64,000 nucleotides of DNA from Candidatus Hydrogenedentota bacterium (GTDB taxonomy: Bacteria > Hydrogenedentota > Hydrogenedentia > Hydrogenedentales > JAEUWI01): contig JAEUWI010000010.1 in the NCBI GenBank assembly GCA_016791475.1, forward strand, positions 20,352-84,351, in the 5' to 3' direction. The position numbers were made by a program, and so were the translations under genes. Below the pieces are notes generated by a model. That model saw only the letters and a program-made list of their open reading frames with translations, was not told the origin of the DNA and ran no database searches. Positions 2-54,137 of the stretch are shown in pieces. The number at the start of each line of letters is the position of its first letter. Position 1 is the first letter of the stretch.

Positions 2-1282
2 GTCACCGAAGCCGAAAAGGCCGTTGCACGCCAGATCCTCGAGGACCAGCGCCTGGACCAGGTCTTGGAAAAGGCCCGGGCCCTGCTGAAGACCGGCCTC
101 ACGGCGGGCGAGGGCTACGGCGAAGTGTGGATCCGCGATCTGAACACTTTCATCGAACTCGCCACGGAAGTGGTGCCCCACACCGAGCTGCGCGACGCCC
201 TCCTGCGTTTCTTCCACTTCCAGGGCGAAGACGGCAATATCATCGATGGCTACATCGCCGCGCAGAAAGCCAGCGTGGGCTACGACTTTATTAAGTCGCC
301 CAGCCAGCCCGACTACCTCGGCCACAAAAATACCGTAGAGACCGATCAGGAGTCCTCGCTGATCCTGGCAGTCTGTCGTTATGTCCGCCTAACCGGCGAC
401 CGGAGCCTGCTGGCGGAAGTGGTCAATGGCCAGACCGTGACGGAGCGCCTCCTGCGCGCCGTCGATTTTCTCCACACGAAGCGATTCGCGCCGGACTACG
501 GCCTGCTCTGGGGCGGCACCACCGCCGACTGGGGCGACGTGCAACCGGAGCACGAATGGGGCGTCGTGCTCGATGAAAACAGCCATCCCGCCCTCGATAT
601 TTACGACAACGCCCTGCTCATTTCCGCGTTGAACGACCTGCTGACCACCGCCGAACTCGACGGTGCCACGAAGCAGAAATACAGCGCCTTCCGCGATGAA
701 CTGAAGGCGAACACCATGAAACACCTGTGGGACGGCGACCGCAAGCAGTTCCGTCCCCATGTGTATCTGAAGGGATCGCCCTTCCCGGCGGACTTCGACG
801 AGGCCGCGATTTATTACCACGGCGGCACGTCCGTCGCCATTGAGGCGGGCCTGCTCACCCGCGCGCAAGTCGGTGAGGCCCTGGCGCGCATGCGGGCCAA
901 TGTGAAAGCGGCGGGCGCGGCGAGCATCGGCCTCACGCTCTACCCATCCTATCCCGAGGGCTTCTTCAAGAATCCCGTCATGGCCAAGACCTACTCCTAC
1001 CAGAACGGTGGCGACTGGACCTGGTTCGGCGGCCGCACACTCTCCGGCCTGATCGCCAACGGCTATCCAGTCGAAGCCTACGAAGAAATGCTCCCCATGG
1101 TCGAGCGAGTCCTGGCCAACAATGACTTTCACGAGTGGTACACCCTCGACAACAAAGCCGCGGGCTCGGGAACTTACCGGGGTGCGGCGGGCGCGCTGGG
1201 GAAAGCGATCCTCGAGCTGCGCGCCTGGGCGGCGGGGGCGGAAACCATGGCGGCGTCCACAGGGACTGACGCGCCCCAGTAA
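2..1282 (+). CDS. six-hairpin (alpha/alpha)6 glycoside hydrolase-like protein, 5' partial
   Basis: ORF track 65..1282 (TTG); same frame stays open back to nt 2, so gene likely starts upstream of window; motifs GEVWIRDLNTFIE and YQNGGDWTWFGG resemble toroid glycosidases (GH63/GH15/debranching-like); family not resolved. Confidence 0.5.
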   Translation, partial: VTEAEKAVARQILEDQRLDQVLEKARALLKTGLTAGEGYGEVWIRDLNTFIELATEVVPHTELRDALLRFFHFQGEDGNIIDGYIAAQKASVGYDFIKSPSQPDYLGHKNTVETDQESSLILAVCRYVRLTGDRSLLAEVVNGQTVTERLLRAVDFLHTKRFAPDYGLLWGGTTADWGDVQPEHEWGVVLDENSHPALDIYDNALLISALNDLLTTAELDGATKQKYSAFRDELKANTMKHLWDGDRKQFRPHVYLKGSPFPADFDEAAIYYHGGTSVAIEAGLLTRAQVGEALARMRANVKAAGAASIGLTLYPSYPEGFFKNPVMAKTYSYQNGGDWTWFGGRTLSGLIANGYPVEAYEEMLPMVERVLANNDFHEWYTLDNKAAGSGTYRGAAGALGKAILELRAWAAGAETMAASTGTDAPQ

Positions 1283-1359
1283 ACCACGATGTGTCAGTTC
1301 ACGCTGTGTTCTCAAGTATCTTGTTGCCGAACAGTAATCCAGGAGGGGCGTGGCTGTCC

Positions 1360-1406
1360 CGTCGTAAGGGAGGTGAATTGTGCTTGCAAACGCTGACGTA
1401 TTCCGC
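1360..1406. repeat. 47-nt direct repeat copy A (CGTCGT[A/C]AGGGAGGTG...ACGTATTCCGC) with SD-like GGGAGGTG core
   Basis: near-identical copy at 2560..2606; both copies bracket the low-GC TA islet. Confidence 0.55.
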
Positions 1407-1542
1407 AAGGTGACCGAGGTGGGCGACTCGCAGAAAAGAGTTCGACAAGAGATCTATTCTTCACGTAGAGTGTGGTGGTAAGTTGACTCCAGCAGCGTGG
1501 GGTGCGGTCCGAACACCTGTTTCGTGAAGATAGTGAGAAGCT

Positions 1543-1920
1543 ATGGTAGCGGCGCGTAGAGTCTTATTGGAAACGGAGTTCACCGCAAGTGAAATCCGTC
1601 GGCAAGACGCTGACTGGGCCTACGGTGGAATCGTAGTTGAAACGATGCCGCCGGGTTGGTTTGTCGGCTTGTCACCGGCGGTGAAGAAAGTAGATTTGAG
1701 TCATTTTGTGTCCTCGCTTACTCTGCTGTGTTTTCGGGATAAATCCGAGCCCGAACGCCATGACTTCGACCTCCTGCGTCAGAAAGAGAATGGGCATCTC
1801 GAACTATTCTTTGAAGAAAAGAACTTCTGGAATCTGAAGTTGGGCGATTCAGTGCGATTCGCAGCGGCTCAAGCGAACCAGCCAAGTGCCAACGACATGG
1901 AAGTGATTGATGAGATTTGA
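1543..1920 (+). CDS. hypothetical protein, candidate toxin partner (RelE/HigB or COG4737 position) of downstream XRE antitoxin
   Basis: ORF track; 14-nt overlap with downstream HTH gene; low GC3 unlike backbone; no motif recognised. Confidence 0.35.
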   Translation: MVAARRVLLETEFTASEIRRQDADWAYGGIVVETMPPGWFVGLSPAVKKVDLSHFVSSLTLLCFRDKSEPERHDFDLLRQKENGHLELFFEEKNFWNLKLGDSVRFAAAQANQPSANDMEVIDEI

Positions 1921-2254
1921 GCGCGCCAAAGACAGCGAGAAATGGGTAAAAAGCAGCGGCAATGTGTTCGCGGACCTCGGGGTTCCGAATCCAGAACTGG
2001 CGCTGCTCAAGGCCGATATCTCCATTGCCATCGAGCAGGCCATTGAGCGGAAGGGTATCTCCCAGCGCGAAGCTGGGGCGCTGATGGGGATTCCCGCCGT
2101 GAAGGTCAGCAACATCGTATGTGGTCGTCTGAAGGGCTACACGCTGGACCGACTTTTTACTTACCTGAATCGGCTGGATGTGGACGTGCAAGTGAAGATG
2201 AAGGCCAAACCCAAAGGGAGGGCGGTCGCCGAGATAACCGGTGTGCGTGCGTGA
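1907..2254 (+). CDS. XRE-family HTH protein, HigA/COG5606-type putative antitoxin
   Basis: GNVFADLG...GISQREAGALMGIPAVKVSNIVCGRLKGYTLDRLFTYLNRL matches HTH_37-type antitoxins as I recall them. Confidence 0.6.
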   Translation: MMRFERAKDSEKWVKSSGNVFADLGVPNPELALLKADISIAIEQAIERKGISQREAGALMGIPAVKVSNIVCGRLKGYTLDRLFTYLNRLDVDVQVKMKAKPKGRAVAEITGVRA

Positions 2255-2262
2255 GGGTGAAT

Positions 2263-2479
2263 CATGGAAAGTGGCGAAGGTCTCATACGGTTGCGGCTGG
2301 GCGACAATGAAAGATGAGGCGACACCTTGCTTCGTTTCGCAATAGAGCACGACGAGCACGGATACTTCGCTCATTGTCCCGATCTGCCGGGCTGCCACAC
2401 CCAGGGGGATACGTATGCGGAGGCGTTGGAGCACATCCACGAGGCGGCCGAGTTGTACCTTGAATCGCTGGAGGATTAA
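2263..2479 (+). pseudogene. hicAB-like remnant: 17-codon HicA-like N-terminus (MESGEGLIRL...) plus short HicB-like antitoxin (FAIEHDEHGYFAHCPDLPGCHTQGDTYAEALEHIHEAAELYLESLED) with start/frame ambiguity
   Basis: ATG at 2308 hits a stop after 12 codons; HicB-like frame opens after a stop at ~2315 with only a TTG (~2327) as start; HicB motif PDLPGC..GDT.EEAL present. Confidence 0.4.
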
Positions 2480-2542
2480 CCACAGAGAACGCAAAGGGCA
2501 CAAAGGGGAAACTTCTCTTTGTGCCCTTTGTGTTCTTTGTGG
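2480..2542. terminator. 63-nt near-perfect palindrome (26-bp arms, 2 G:U-compatible mismatches) directly after the hicB-like stop, TTAA on both flanks
   Basis: CCACAGAGAACGCAAAGGGCACAAAG-N11-CTTTGTGCCCTTTGTGTTCTTTGTGG; no strong T-run, so may be a REP/MITE-like hairpin rather than a terminator. Confidence 0.4.
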
Positions 2543-2559
2543 TTAAACATTTCTGATCA

Positions 2560-2606
2560 CGTCGTCAGGGAGGTGCATTTGGCTTGCCGACGTCAACGTA
2601 TTCCGC
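2560..2606. repeat. 47-nt direct repeat copy B
   Basis: aligns to 1360..1406 with ~80% identity including GGGAGGTG and ACGTATTCCGC. Confidence 0.55.
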
Positions 2607-2766
2607 GACGCGTTCCCCGGAAGCGGGCCCGTGTAGATTTCAGTTCATCCCACGAACGACGGGACAGCCACGGACGCCACAGAAACCTTGCTCGTTGTGA
2701 ATCGCTGTGAATAATCAGAGAAAATCTCCCGAACGTCATCGCGGGTCCGCGTCAGTCCCTGCGGGA

Positions 2767-3165
2767 CTATCCCACCTGGATCGTCGTGGTGTCGTAGCGG
2801 TTGCGGAAGGTGATTGTCTTGCCGTTGGTGAAGGCGAGGGAGACTGCGGACCCCGGTTGGATGGCGTCGCCATTGCACCCGGTCAGCGATTGCCCCGCCA
2901 GAGCGTGCTTTTCGCCGAGATCGTTCAAGGGAAAGGCCTGGCCGTCCGCGCCATTGGGCGAAGGGCCTTCCTTGGCCGTGCGCCAGAAGATGATATCGTC
3001 GTCGAAGTAGAGTTTGTGCCAGGCACCATCGACGCAAAGCCACACCACATTGGCCTCGTCGTCCAGCTCCCCCGCGAACCAGGCCTCCTGCGCGATGAGG
3101 CGCTCCAAGGTCTTGCCCGCGAAATCGGGCCATGCCCCGTCAATGTACAACTCTGCAGATACCAT
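2767..3165 (-). CDS. hypothetical acidic protein (132 aa)
   Basis: ORF track; high GC3 and coding-like composition; no family recognised. Confidence 0.55.
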   Translation of the reverse strand: MVSAELYIDGAWPDFAGKTLERLIAQEAWFAGELDDEANVVWLCVDGAWHKLYFDDDIIFWRTAKEGPSPNGADGQAFPLNDLGEKHALAGQSLTGCNGDAIQPGSAVSLAFTNGKTITFRNRYDTTTIQVG

Positions 3166-3261
3166 GGGATGCGCTCTCTAGTGGGTTAAACACCGTAACC
3201 CTAGCACACGGGGGTAGTGTGGGGCGAATTCAAGGAGCGCTGCGGTCGCTGATTCAGCCTG

Positions 3262-4791
3262 TCAGTGGTCCCGCGCTTTCCCCGCGTTGCCCACGGTGAA
3301 GCGGAAGGCGTAGAGGCTGGCCTGGTCCATTTCGATCCGCAGCCGCGTGGGCTTTCCCGCTCGCGCGGTCACATCGCCGCCATCCTTCCACAGCACCAGC
3401 GCGTCGATCTGGTCGCCCGCAATCGCCTCGCAATCCGCCGTGGTGCGTCCGGGTATCGCCTCGTCCTTCTCGTCGAGAAGGCCCACACGGAGGTACCCGC
3501 CCTCGCGGACGTGGACGTTCAGCTTCAGCAGGTTGCCCTGAAAGAGCAGGGGAGGCGTGGTGAAGGCGCCACCGCCCGTCTCCGCCTCAACGGAGACGAA
3601 GCCGTCCAGTCGTGTGGTGACGCGGCTCATGACGCGGCTGTTGCCGGGCAACACGAGGGCTTCCAGTTCGCCCTCTTCATGGTTCAGGGGGGAGCCGCCA
3701 TAGTACTGGTAGAGGGTATCTCCAACGCGAAGGAGTCCCTGCCCCATATAGAGTGAGCCGGCGTCGAAGCTGCCTTCCGGCCCCAGCGGAATATAGGACT
3801 TCGACTGTTCCGGCCAGGTCCAGGCGATGCCATCCCGGCTCGTGGCCATGCGGATGTCGAGGGTCTGCGTCTGGTGGTTGAAGAGACTGGGGAACATGAA
3901 CCAGGCCCGGGCCGCATGGGGATATTTAAGTGTCGCCGGATTGTAGAGGTCGCTTTCCGGCGGATCCTTCTCGTCGGTCTGAAGCACCAGTTGGAGCGGT
4001 TCAAAGAAAGACAGATCCTTGCTGGTGGATCGTCCCAGGGCCCGTCCCCGCCCGCTGACGCGGCCAAAGAGCACATACTCGGTTGCTCCCTCATCCCACA
4101 CGGCGGAATACTGGCTGTCGCCGAAGATATCGCAAATGGGATCGGGGTAACGGGTCCATGTGAACCCATCGGCCGAATACATGGCGGCCACGCGATAGGG
4201 CGGGGTGCCCAGCACCTCGAAGATACCTTGCGACACCGCCTTGTAGCGCTGTTCCGGTGGTGCGGCGGGGTCTTTGAAAACGTGGCTGCCGTGGACGCGC
4301 GACCGGGCGCCCTCGGGGCCGATCTGGCGAAAGAGGATGTTGTTCTTCGTACTGCCCTGATAGCTGAAGAGGTCCAGCGCCGGCTTGGTCCAGTGAATGC
4401 CATCCGTCGACTCGGCGTAGCAAAAGGAAGTATCGTCCAGATTGGGCCAGCCTTCGATGTCATAGGCCTCATACCACATGCGATAACGCGCCCGGGGCTG
4501 GTCCGGAGTCGAGAGTGTGCCGCCCCGGTCTTCCATCACGGAGAACCAGTTCAACGTGGCGCTCTCCCAGGGCTGATCGCGCACCACATTCTGCTCCCCA
4601 GTCTTCGTGGCGGGGTTCACCTGAAGGCGGACGCCCGAGGCGCTCTCGAAGAAAAGTGTGTCTATAAAAAGCTGCTTCTCGCTGCCGACGTGAATGGGCG
4701 AAGGACCGGTCTCCTCGGCGATAACCGGGAAAGACAGCATCAAAGCTGACACCACGGCCAGCGGGATCAGTGTGGATCTTGGGTACATGCG
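3262..4791 (-). CDS. secreted BNR/Asp-box repeat beta-propeller glycoside hydrolase (sialidase-like)
   Basis: signal peptide MYPRSTLIPLAVVSALMLSFPVIA from internal ATG (ORF track 3262..4872); Asp-box repeats STDGIHWT, SADGFTWT, SRDGIAWT. Confidence 0.6.
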   Translation of the reverse strand, partial: RMYPRSTLIPLAVVSALMLSFPVIAEETGPSPIHVGSEKQLFIDTLFFESASGVRLQVNPATKTGEQNVVRDQPWESATLNWFSVMEDRGGTLSTPDQPRARYRMWYEAYDIEGWPNLDDTSFCYAESTDGIHWTKPALDLFSYQGSTKNNILFRQIGPEGARSRVHGSHVFKDPAAPPEQRYKAVSQGIFEVLGTPPYRVAAMYSADGFTWTRYPDPICDIFGDSQYSAVWDEGATEYVLFGRVSGRGRALGRSTSKDLSFFEPLQLVLQTDEKDPPESDLYNPATLKYPHAARAWFMFPSLFNHQTQTLDIRMATSRDGIAWTWPEQSKSYIPLGPEGSFDAGSLYMGQGLLRVGDTLYQYYGGSPLNHEEGELEALVLPGNSRVMSRVTTRLDGFVSVEAETGGGAFTTPPLLFQGNLLKLNVHVREGGYLRVGLLDEKDEAIPGRTTADCEAIAGDQIDALVLWKDGGDVTARAGKPTRLRIEMDQASLYAFRFTVGNAGKARDH

Positions 4792-8346: not shown

Positions 8347-8422
<76 letters not shown>

Positions 8423-8434
8423 TTTTTATTTTTC

Positions 8435-8510
8435 GGGCCGTTAGCTCAGTTGGTAGAGCAGGTGACTCTTAATCACAAGGTCGGGGGTTCGATCCCCTCA
8501 CGGCCCACCA
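8435..8510 (+). tRNA. tRNA-Lys (anticodon CTT)
   Basis: acceptor GGGCCGT/ACGGCCC, anticodon loop CTCTTAA, GTTCGATCC T-loop, CCA encoded; resembles E. coli tRNA-Lys. Confidence 0.85.
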
Positions 8511-8604
8511 TTTTAACGAATCTTTAGTACACACATCTGAGCCGGCAAATAAAACATGTTTTGCCAGCTTTTTTTTTGGTACTATGGTAGCCCTGCCCCC
8601 GGAC

Positions 8605-8689
8605 GGGCGAGTGGCGGAATTGGCAGACGCGCCAGATTTAGGTTCTGGTACCTCGCGGTGTGCGGGTTCAAGTCCCGCCTCGCCCACCA
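8605..8689 (+). tRNA. tRNA-Leu (anticodon TAG), long variable arm
   Basis: acceptor GGGCGAG/CTCGCCC, anticodon loop TTTAGGT, 13-nt variable arm, CCA encoded. Confidence 0.85.
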
Positions 8690-54000: not shown

Positions 54001-54137
54001 CCCCCCCTACCCCCCCGCAAGCGGGTGGACCAAGCGGTTCACTTTGACACGTGTGGTTCCCCCCGCAAGCGGGTGGACCAAGCGGTTCACTTTGACACGT
54101 GTGGTTCCCCCCGCTTGCGGGGGGCCACGGGGGTAGG
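54001..54137. repeat. tandem 48-nt repeat (2 copies plus partial) of CCCCCCGCAAGCGGG hairpin + TGGACCAAGCGGTTCACTTTGACACGTGTGGTT, bracketed by inverted CCCCCTACCCCC / GGGGGTAGG
   Basis: seen directly; homologous to element at 36411..36499. Confidence 0.7.

Follow-up and report, generated by a model that had tools for sequence, protein, structure and literature searches.

The stretch of DNA considered here, referred to as the window, comprises 64,000 nucleotides of contig JAEUWI010000010.1 from a Candidatus Hydrogenedentota bacterium. Close to its left end it carries an islet of small genes that stands between two copies of a direct repeat and is bounded by two hairpin-forming modules of opposite orientation, module A on the left and module B on the right (Table 1). 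A preliminary description of the region had reported the repeat as 47 nt long with a spacing of 1200 nt around a segment of low GC content, and these observations hold up: the repeat search of the window gives 50 nt, of which 40 are identical (80%), and a start-to-start distance of exactly 1200 nt, and the GC content is 0.50-0.59 between the copies versus 0.61-0.67 in the flanks. The repeat is present in two copies in the 64 kb; a degenerate pattern for each repeat half gives only 2 matches there, the chance expectations being 0.03 and 0.01. On balance, we lean towards reading the islet as a composite element similar to REPINs (repetitive extragenic palindromic (REP) doublets forming hairpins) and miniature inverted-repeat transposable elements (MITEs), with a 1.2-kb gene block inserted at its tail and the tail duplicated at both junctions.

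Table 1. Features of the islet and of the two genes beside it (positions in the window; L numbers denote other contigs)
Feature	Position	Strand	Basis and remarks
Glycoside-hydrolase (GH)-like gene, left flank	65..1282	+	Pfam Glyco_hydro_94 / MGH1-like; open reading frame (ORF) open to window start
Hairpin module A (type A)	1256..1366	+	Covariance model R1, 102.3 bits, E=2.4e-22; minimum-free-energy fold; covariation
Direct repeat copy 1	1357..1406	+	Tail after module A: CGTCGT tag plus Shine-Dalgarno (SD)-like AGGGAGGTG; shares last 4 nt of module stem
Cargo-gene leader	1407..1542	+	Conserved in L001-L004; promoter-like TCGACA-18-TAGAGT at 1442-1471
125-aa ORF	1543..1920	+	Rare uncharacterised family, ~108 aa, mostly β-strand, MPPGxFV motif
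XRE-type helix-turn-helix (HTH) regulator (HTH_37)	1907..2254	+	Pfam E=3.5e-16; PHROG HTH DNA-binding proteins; putative antitoxin or autoregulator
HicB-like (UPF0150-type) pseudogene	2264..2479	+	One frame, in-frame TGA 2315-2317 inside 18-nt insertion
71-nt CACAAAG-unit hairpin (palindrome)	2476..2546	.	TTAACCACAGAG...CTTTGTGGTTAA; first TAA is the stop of the HicB-like gene
Linker (part)	2547..2556	+	Of ~18-nt linker AACATTTCTGATCA between palindrome and CGTCGT of copy 2; in L003 the homologous linker joins palindrome and module A
Direct repeat copy 2	2557..2606	+	Native tail of the mini-element, no module upstream here; colinear with the L166 tail
Mini-element interior	2607..2654	.	Includes module B tail on minus strand; inverted copy 2641-2672 covers that tail together with module B's inner block
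Hairpin module B (type B)	2655..2765	-	Stem CGCGGAC/GTCCGTG, inverted relative to module A; R1 88.5 bits, E=4e-19; fold; covariation
Gene of 132-aa protein, function unassigned, right flank	2767..3165	-	tblastn 81% to the homologue in L002, also beside the islet there

The two ends of the islet are inverted relatives of each other. When the left end (1257-1380) is compared with the right end (2641-2764), the two run in register, with 16 of 17 positions identical in an outer block and 26 of 32 (17 exact) in an inner block, at an identical offset of 92 nt; the 75 nt between the blocks are unrelated across the ends (21/75, chance level). The same relationship surfaces in the repeat search as a 17-nt inverted pair (1257-1273 / 2748-2764) and as a third, inverted partial copy of the repeat at 2641-2672, the reverse complement of 1349-1380, and neither block occurs anywhere else in the window. 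In module A, GGGAC (1262-1266) pairs with GTCCC (1356-1360) and, beyond a 3x3 internal loop, CGCGCCC (1270-1276) pairs with GGGCGTG (1346-1352), the halves of this second stem being separated by ~69 unconserved nt. All eight modules that were folded have this base structure in common: GGGAC/GUCCC, a 3x3 internal loop (UGA/GCU) and CGCGNNC/GNNCGUG. Variation at NN distinguishes the types: outer CC with inner GG defines type A (left end of the window, L001, L003, left end of L166, right end of L127) and outer GA with inner UC type B (right end of the window, L002, right end of L166, L131); the left end of L127 has outer CA with inner UG, and L157 has outer CG with inner CG.

Covariation supports this fold. 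The modules measure ~105-110 nt, and the family is known from 11 copies on 8 contigs; in their alignment (A6), 93.7% of the cells are paired versus 36-60% with slid partner columns, and none of 500 shuffles matches the observed pairing or covariation score. Two adjacent stem pairs vary on both sides with zero unpaired cells, one as CG in seven copies and GC in four, the other as AU in five, CG in five and GC in one. Within each end, compensation is found at precisely the positions in which it differs from the opposite end of the same element; selection thus acts on the stem inside each module, in the single-stranded state and on the strand reading from the outside inward. One G.U pair is invariant and would give a C.A mismatch on the opposite strand; the module structure is thus strand-specific.

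The covariance model R1 finds exactly the two modules of Table 1 in the window, none in 0.7 Mb from 100 other genome loci, and elsewhere only the known copies. A metagenome scan that required both blocks, separated by 68-88 nt, returned 41 matches; true members occur only at gaps of 76-77 nt and share the pattern [CT]AGGGACTGACGCG ... CGTGGCTGTCCCGYCGT, the matches at other gaps being coding sequence without the extended motif. In viral contigs the module pattern gave one chance match only. Three contigs of one metagenome (SXGT01) carry the element. According to our reading of the loci, 10 of the 11 modules lie sense-downstream of a gene 3' end, seven of them within ~100 nt of the stop codon; in the window, the last ~9 codons and the stop codon of the GH-like gene are inside module A, and module B begins 2 nt past the stop codon of the 132-aa gene.

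Every module, including those of gene-free elements, is followed by a semi-conserved tail that consists of CGTCGT and a purine-rich stretch resembling GGGAGGTG. The CGTCGT tag stands directly 3' of GTCCC in 11 of 11 modules with at most one substitution, and both copies of the direct repeat begin with it; tails after type B modules are more degenerate, including a degenerate SD-like sequence. A reading of the alignments reveals no start codon that is kept in either frame through the tail across copies, and the gene-free tails encode no similar peptide (the same frame in L166 reads GYTNTHSVR), which speaks against both a leader peptide and the remnant of a gene start. A decayed PIN/VapC N-terminus (LxDxNV) was rejected along with the leader peptide, since start and frame are unconserved, no Pfam match is found and gene-free tails have no conserved peptide. 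The folding analysis proposed in the preliminary description yields nothing for the repeat as a structured RNA: neither copy outdoes shuffled sequences in folding on either strand (z from -0.04 to +1.9). Rfam over 1000-3400 gives nothing real, its microRNA matches being hairpin artefacts, and over the whole window it reports three tRNAs only. Pairing of the whole element as one hairpin was also discarded, the segment 2550-2690 folding at z=+0.87.

Two contigs carry the element without genes: L166 has two inverted modules with 301 bp between the outer-block ends, placed between two convergent terminators, and L127 has two inverted modules spanning about 400 bp. These mini-elements of ~310 and 410 bp both consist of module A, tail, interior and module B; L131 and L157 have single modules just after a gene and no cargo genes. 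From the tail to the end of module B, the segment measures 209 nt in the window (2557-2765), 210 nt in L002 and 211 nt in the gene-free L166, and it is colinear over its full length. This colinearity identifies copy 2 as the native tail and copy 1 as a second copy of it, so that the 1200 bp between their starts are extra DNA. The earlier picture of a cassette delimited by the repeats therefore stands as the outline of an insertion, 1200 bp being what separates the window from a mini-element, but not as the outer boundary, which is set by the modules, at 1256 and 2765.

Three close homologues of the 125-aa protein, on four short metagenome contigs (L001-L004), provide further forms of the islet. 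The GH gene and the left end are common to the window and L001, in which a 241-aa gene and then a DUF6968 gene follow the XRE gene; L004 has HicB followed by the 241-aa gene; in L002, HicB precedes the palindrome, copy 2 and the right end, after which come the DUF6968 gene and the homologue of the 132-aa gene; and in L003, which encodes the same protein as L002 and comes from a sister sample, the gene upstream is another one (WbsX-like), and between it and the left end stands a copy of the palindrome. Alignment A7 sets the order palindrome-linker-module A-copy 1 of L003 against palindrome-linker-copy 2 of the window and L002, and the two differ by one ~100-nt gap that corresponds to the module; the module is therefore a discrete unit, present at one paralogous junction and absent from the other. 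Since homology between L003 and the window starts at ~1257, inside the last codons of the GH gene, the left boundary of the islet is the outer block and not the 47-nt repeat. In the organism of L002 and L003, the direct repeat that flanks the genes really measures about 150 nt and comprises palindrome, linker and tail. The 241-aa protein (L001 1184-1909, minus strand, and right end of L004) has a weak PP-binding-like N-terminus, and its gene stands in place of palindrome, copy 2 and module B.

Within the islet, the promoter-like site of the leader comes from a promoter scan and is a consensus match only; its -35-like GTTCGACAA is invariant in five of five aligned relatives. The 125-aa protein has three close relatives among 5.8e9 proteins, and an exhaustive search adds 8 weaker matches at E<=0.001, six of which are proteins of ~106-123 aa that align over their full length at 28-32% identity and have the MPPGxFV motif in common: these proteins are a small new family. 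The assignment by profile that had been suggested for this putative toxin returns no Pfam or NCBIfam family, and PADLOC, PHROGs and PDB sequences contain none either. A confident AlphaFold (AF2) model on the family alignment is mostly β (predicted local distance difference test score 78.5), and with Foldseek its best PDB matches are generic β-barrels only, all weak (E>=0.035, template modelling score about 0.44). The protein is real and conserved; the toxin label is unsupported. As described before, the XRE gene overlaps the upstream ORF, here by 14 nt, and it lies 3' of the 125-aa gene in L001-L004 as well; the pair may constitute a self-regulated two-gene module, be it toxin-antitoxin or not. 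Next to distant homologues of the 125-aa gene with visible context (L005, L006 and the contig of P0009), a small sample of short contigs, there is no HTH gene. One of these homologues, P0005, lies between attC-like GCCTAAC...GTTAGGC sequences (L006 80-170 and 488-585) and is followed by a GNAT acetyltransferase gene; the locus has the appearance of an integron cassette array, from an unrelated organism of low GC content.

The decayed hicAB of the preliminary description reduces to a single gene. A HicB-like ORF at 2327-2479 indeed matches Pfam PF15919 (E=9e-10); the supposed 17-codon HicA stub, however, is the N-terminus of the same pseudogene, as the translation of 2264-2479 is a single protein with one internal TGA, in which 2264-2317 is in frame with 2327-2479. 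In L002 the HicB-like gene (PHROG HicB-like) is intact at 65 aa and lacks the 18-nt insertion; this and the shared frame leave one HicB-like pseudogene and no hicA. At 2296-2326 of the window, a 7-nt direct repeat, GGCGACA ... GGCGACA, encloses the insertion and points to a small slippage duplication that brought in the TGA. The annotation is corrected accordingly: the toxin-antitoxin label is only half borne out, in that the locus has the XRE regulator and the HicB-like pseudogene, but no hicAB and no recognisable toxin.

The palindrome, previously given as 63 nt with TTAA at its flanks, extends over 71 nt; its arms (2476-2505 / 2517-2546) include the TTAA and form an almost perfect 34-bp stem (-55.5 kcal/mol, z=-11). 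The wider search that had been proposed for it finds no second copy in the 64 kb and many elsewhere: the right arm TTTGNGTTCTTTGTGGTTAA, matched at 19 of 20 nt, occurs in at least 120 stretches of species-representative genomes (L007-L126), where by estimate ~4 chance matches are expected in 596 Gb. Among the matches listed, at least eight phyla are represented (Bacteroidota, Verrucomicrobiota, Planctomycetota, Acidobacteriota, Hydrogenedentota, Lentisphaerota, Chloroflexota and others), and roughly half are preceded, 65-181 nt upstream, by a left arm that matches. The common layout is TTAACCACAAAG, repeated ~9-nt units of NNCACAAAG, a variable centre and ... CTTTGTGGTTAA, giving hairpins of 65-180 nt. 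Again among the listed matches, 50 of 53 complete hairpins are intergenic; those with both neighbours called lie in 21 tandem, 6 convergent and 2 divergent gaps, often 0-80 nt past a stop codon; the stop is part of the TTAA itself in four cases, just as for HicB in the window. The CACAAAG family thus shows the behaviour of REP-like elements at gene 3' ends and not that of attC sites, and the earlier caution about an attC role of the palindrome was right, given a bulge-free hairpin that is single in the window and a family that follows ordinary genes in many phyla. Neither an Rfam family for the hairpin nor a paper with its sequence was found, literature searches giving unrelated primers only; it may represent an undescribed cross-phylum REP-like family, very widespread, that may merit separate study. 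A subfamily of ~110 nt with a conserved GC-rich centre, GGCGCCTATAGGCGC, is present in the Opitutaceae metagenome-assembled genome (MAG) JADJZJ01 in several copies per contig (L050 5640-5748, 7038-7148 and 7423-7563; also L021, L069 and L074), after a GH gene and a Gfo/Idh/MocA (oxidoreductase) gene. CACAAAG-type hairpins also lie near modules: L131 (8068-8215 and 8255-8290) has a long variant of CACGGAG units, and a degenerate CACAAAG palindrome is found inside the mini-element of L127 (7404-7470).

Rightward of the islet follow the genes of the 132-aa and 536-aa proteins, Dtd, Fmt, GT2-TPR, GNAT, three tRNAs, trigger factor, ClpP, ClpX, Lon and EngB; the tRNA cluster occupies 8347-8686, between the GNAT gene and trigger factor. 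The 536-aa protein has its closest named homologues in Candidatus Hydrogenedentes MAGs (71% and 58% identity). Relatives share the Dtd-Fmt side, but the gene content past the 536-aa gene differs every time, which places the islet at a synteny breakpoint, the edge of a core block. The closest relative, L171 (92%), keeps the 132-aa homologue beside the 536-aa gene, and its contig ends there. Far from the islet and unrelated to it, the window contains a GC-rich inverted repeat (54059-54124; 19-nt arms, 95% complementary, 28 nt apart, CCCCCCGCAAGCGGGTGGA / TCCCCCCGCTTGCGGGGGG).

The architecture of the islet, its colinearity with gene-free elements, the covariation of the stems and the discreteness of the module at paralogous junctions are direct observations; they could be connected in the following manner. 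The basic element would be gene-free and ~310-410 bp long, composed of module A (~105 nt), the tail (CGTCGT plus AGGGAGGTG), a short interior and the inverted module B. Each module would fold in the single-stranded state, a two-step stem closing a stretch whose length is constant and whose sequence is not conserved. In the window, a 1200-bp segment would have come to sit between module A and the native tail, consisting of the second tail copy, the promoter-like leader, the 125-aa gene, the XRE gene, the HicB-like pseudogene, the CACAAAG 3' hairpin and the linker. The repeats would then be the two junctions of the inserted cargo, and recombination between the tails would remove exactly 1200 bp and restore the mini-element. 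Cargo may enter or leave by recombination at the tail/CGTCGT site, and the modules may act as single-stranded hairpins, either as RNA structures in the 3' untranslated regions of the flanking genes or as single-stranded DNA (ssDNA) sites of an enzyme; for REP/REPIN elements, an ssDNA enzyme-recognition role has been proposed. The cargo may have been inserted, or a deletion between the tails may have produced the mini-elements.

Several observations weigh against such an element. It is represented on 8 contigs only, probably from few related organisms, and the independent compensatory events in the stems are few (at least 3). L001 and L004 carry genes without a right end, so that the full structure is not universal, and the spacers between module copies are unrelated in sequence, unlike those of recently transposed MITEs. 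In several tails the SD-like core is followed by GTG or TTG at the right distance, and a translational role is possible. No target-site duplication (TSD) is apparent when the sequences at the ends in the window, L166 and L127 are read, and no transposase or recombinase gene is found in the islet or in the 14 kb to its right, the left side running off the window. Via the 536-aa neighbour no empty site was recovered, since synteny is lost in each relative and the closest contig stops too soon. Neither TSD, enzyme nor empty site having been found, mobility of the element is conjectural. The two-hairpin repeat element itself is previously undescribed and rests on few loci. If the reading is true, this would be a REP/REPIN-like element of a new kind, with long covarying hairpins in inverted heterodimers and a gene block between the partners, and a concrete case of repeats carrying or trapping genes; excision would yield a 1200-nt circle and a mini-element scar. 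A bolder version, to which we give little credence, holds that the ~105-nt covarying modules with CGTCGT are recognised by a single-strand system of recombination or transposition, so far undescribed, in Hydrogenedentota-like bacteria, which captures and releases promoter-bearing cassettes at the tag. Such a cassette dock, integron-like or REPIN-like, would make the 1200-bp toxin-antitoxin-like block one captured cassette.

The repeats could instead be homologous 5' leaders, that is ribosome-binding regions, of two paralogous units, copy 1 driving a small ORF and the operon of the 125-aa gene and copy 2 leading a decayed gene. The strong SD-like AGGGAGGTG would suit this, as it is followed after 4-6 nt by GTG (copy 1, L001) or TTG (copy 2, L004), and so would, in our own reading, several substitutions between the copies at third positions of one frame (LANADVFR / LADVNVFR). 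Yet start codon and frame are not conserved, L003 having none and L004 and copy 2 using a frame different from that of copy 1; B-type tails have a degenerate SD sequence, and the small ORFs are without a Pfam match. The tail also occurs in elements that have no downstream ORF, the L166 frame there giving no conserved peptide, which speaks equally against the possibility raised in the preliminary description that the copies might be no more than homologous 5' untranslated regions of paralogous genes. We regard leaders as improbable. A site-specific cassette, unlikely in our estimation though deserving some weight, would make the repeats attL and attR at the 3' flank of module A, the target being comparable to a structured-RNA gene, or else would involve a single-strand HUH/Y1 enzyme (IS200/RAYT-like) that cuts beside CGTCGT close to a hairpin. 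Insertion of islands into tRNA or tmRNA genes leaves the 3' ~45-50 nt of the gene duplicated, and a repeat of ~50 nt and 80% identity at the 3' edge of a hairpin resembles a tRNA-type att duplication. The constancy of the tag after the modules, its place at the start of both repeat copies, and the missing TSD point the same way, as does the hairpin that precedes each of the two CGTCGT sites (module A before copy 1, the palindrome before copy 2); CGTC-tagged REPs are, moreover, a described class (PMC3733652). What speaks against it is that neither the islet nor the 14 kb on its right shows an integrase or a Y1 transposase, that neither excision product nor empty site is observed, and that the modules are inverted, on opposite strands, unlike the same-strand end hairpins of IS200/IS605.

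An integron-type gene cassette, or a remnant in a cluster of attC sites lacking an integron integrase (CALIN), with the palindrome as attC, is largely refuted and can be given hardly any weight. The palindrome does end in GTTAAAC, which fits GTTRRRY, and starts with GATTAAC, one mismatch from RYYYAAC; the left box contains the stop codon, a common arrangement in cassettes, and the homologue P0005 stands between classic attC-like sites, followed by a GNAT cassette. The near-perfect 34-bp hairpin, however, has neither an unpaired central spacer nor extrahelical bases; it is the only one in 64 kb, and its family follows ordinary genes in tandem or convergent gaps of at least eight phyla. No integrase is nearby, the 14 kb on the right holding housekeeping genes only, and the flanking genes are oppositely oriented. 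The last alternative is a local segmental duplication or rearrangement at the synteny breakpoint, which would need no dedicated mechanism and would leave modules and palindromes as resident 3'-untranslated-region hairpins. The islet does border on a conserved housekeeping block, relatives vary at this locus, each of the 241-aa gene, the DUF6968 gene, HicB and the palindrome occurring in some and missing from others, and the duplicated unit of ~150 nt in L002/L003, with palindrome and linker, looks like a segmental duplication. Set against this, the two-module unit recurs with unchanged spacing and homologous interior at unrelated loci with other flanking genes (L166, L127), which calls for a dispersal of the unit beyond local duplication alone; this alternative appears very improbable. 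Ends of known transposons were also considered: the outer block matches the first 12 nt of the Tn3 inverted repeat at 10 of 12 positions, and ISAs1-type 'CAGGG' ends came into question, both as tentative leads. Tn3-family and ISAs1-type ends were rejected because there is neither a TSD nor a transposase.

The inserted gene block and the composite element that may carry it both recall known systems in part. The small ORF that overlaps an HTH_37 gene, paired with it in four close relatives, is arranged like HigBA, in which the toxin lies upstream and the XRE antitoxin downstream, but the upstream protein is similar to no toxin family or fold and its distant homologues have no XRE partner; a HicB-like gene is adjacent, which recalls HicAB, but it is a pseudogene with the N-terminal domain only, and HicA is missing. 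Integron cassettes are likewise small promoter-bearing blocks, including toxin-antitoxin-like genes, between structured single-strand sites, and the succession of stem, internal loop, stem and variable region in the modules resembles the R-box, unpaired spacer, L-box and variable terminal structure of attC. Unlike attC, the modules have no RYYYAAC/GTTRRRY cores and no extrahelical bases and are inverted, not co-oriented, and neither an array nor IntI is seen.

MITEs and mobile insertion cassettes are non-autonomous elements that are bounded by terminal inverted repeats (TIRs) and have passenger genes. The composite element compares with them in its inverted ends, its intergenic position, its gene-free forms of ~300-400 bp and its longer form with passenger genes. 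It differs in the lack of a TSD, in a bipartite 'TIR' with an unrelated spacer and in copies that are not near-identical, with conservation limited to stems, tag and length; mismatches between its ends are compensated within each end, which indicates selection on hairpins inside the ends and not on end-to-end identity. The REPIN concept reportedly goes back to Bertels and Rainey. A REPIN system pairs the gene of a cognate REP-associated tyrosine transposase (RAYT, a Y1 HUH enzyme) with tens to hundreds of element copies in a genome; here the apparent copy number is low and no RAYT was identified.

The closest parallels are found among REPs themselves. CGTC-tagged REPs have a stem of 8-9 bp and a loop of 4-5 nt within 20-40 bp overall (Di Nocera et al. 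2013, PMC3733652), and their dimers are mostly inverted and often heterodimers, with a CGTC-type tag, located just after ORFs, with length-conserved spacers and with DNA inserted between the partners (PMC3733652). Modules of ~105 nt, with an interrupted stem of 5+7 bp around ~69 unconserved nt, fall outside this class in size and stem and are thus an analogue of CGTC-tagged REPs, not a member. They nevertheless have the unpaired CGTC-type tag beside the stem, and they form inverted A/B heterodimers of two partner types (L166, L127, the window, L002 together with L003). As with REP dimers, they are situated just downstream of ORFs, sometimes over the stop codon, without a TSD; their spacers are alike in length and not in sequence, and DNA can sit between the partners, in the present islet a 1.2-kb gene block with the duplicated tail at its flanks.

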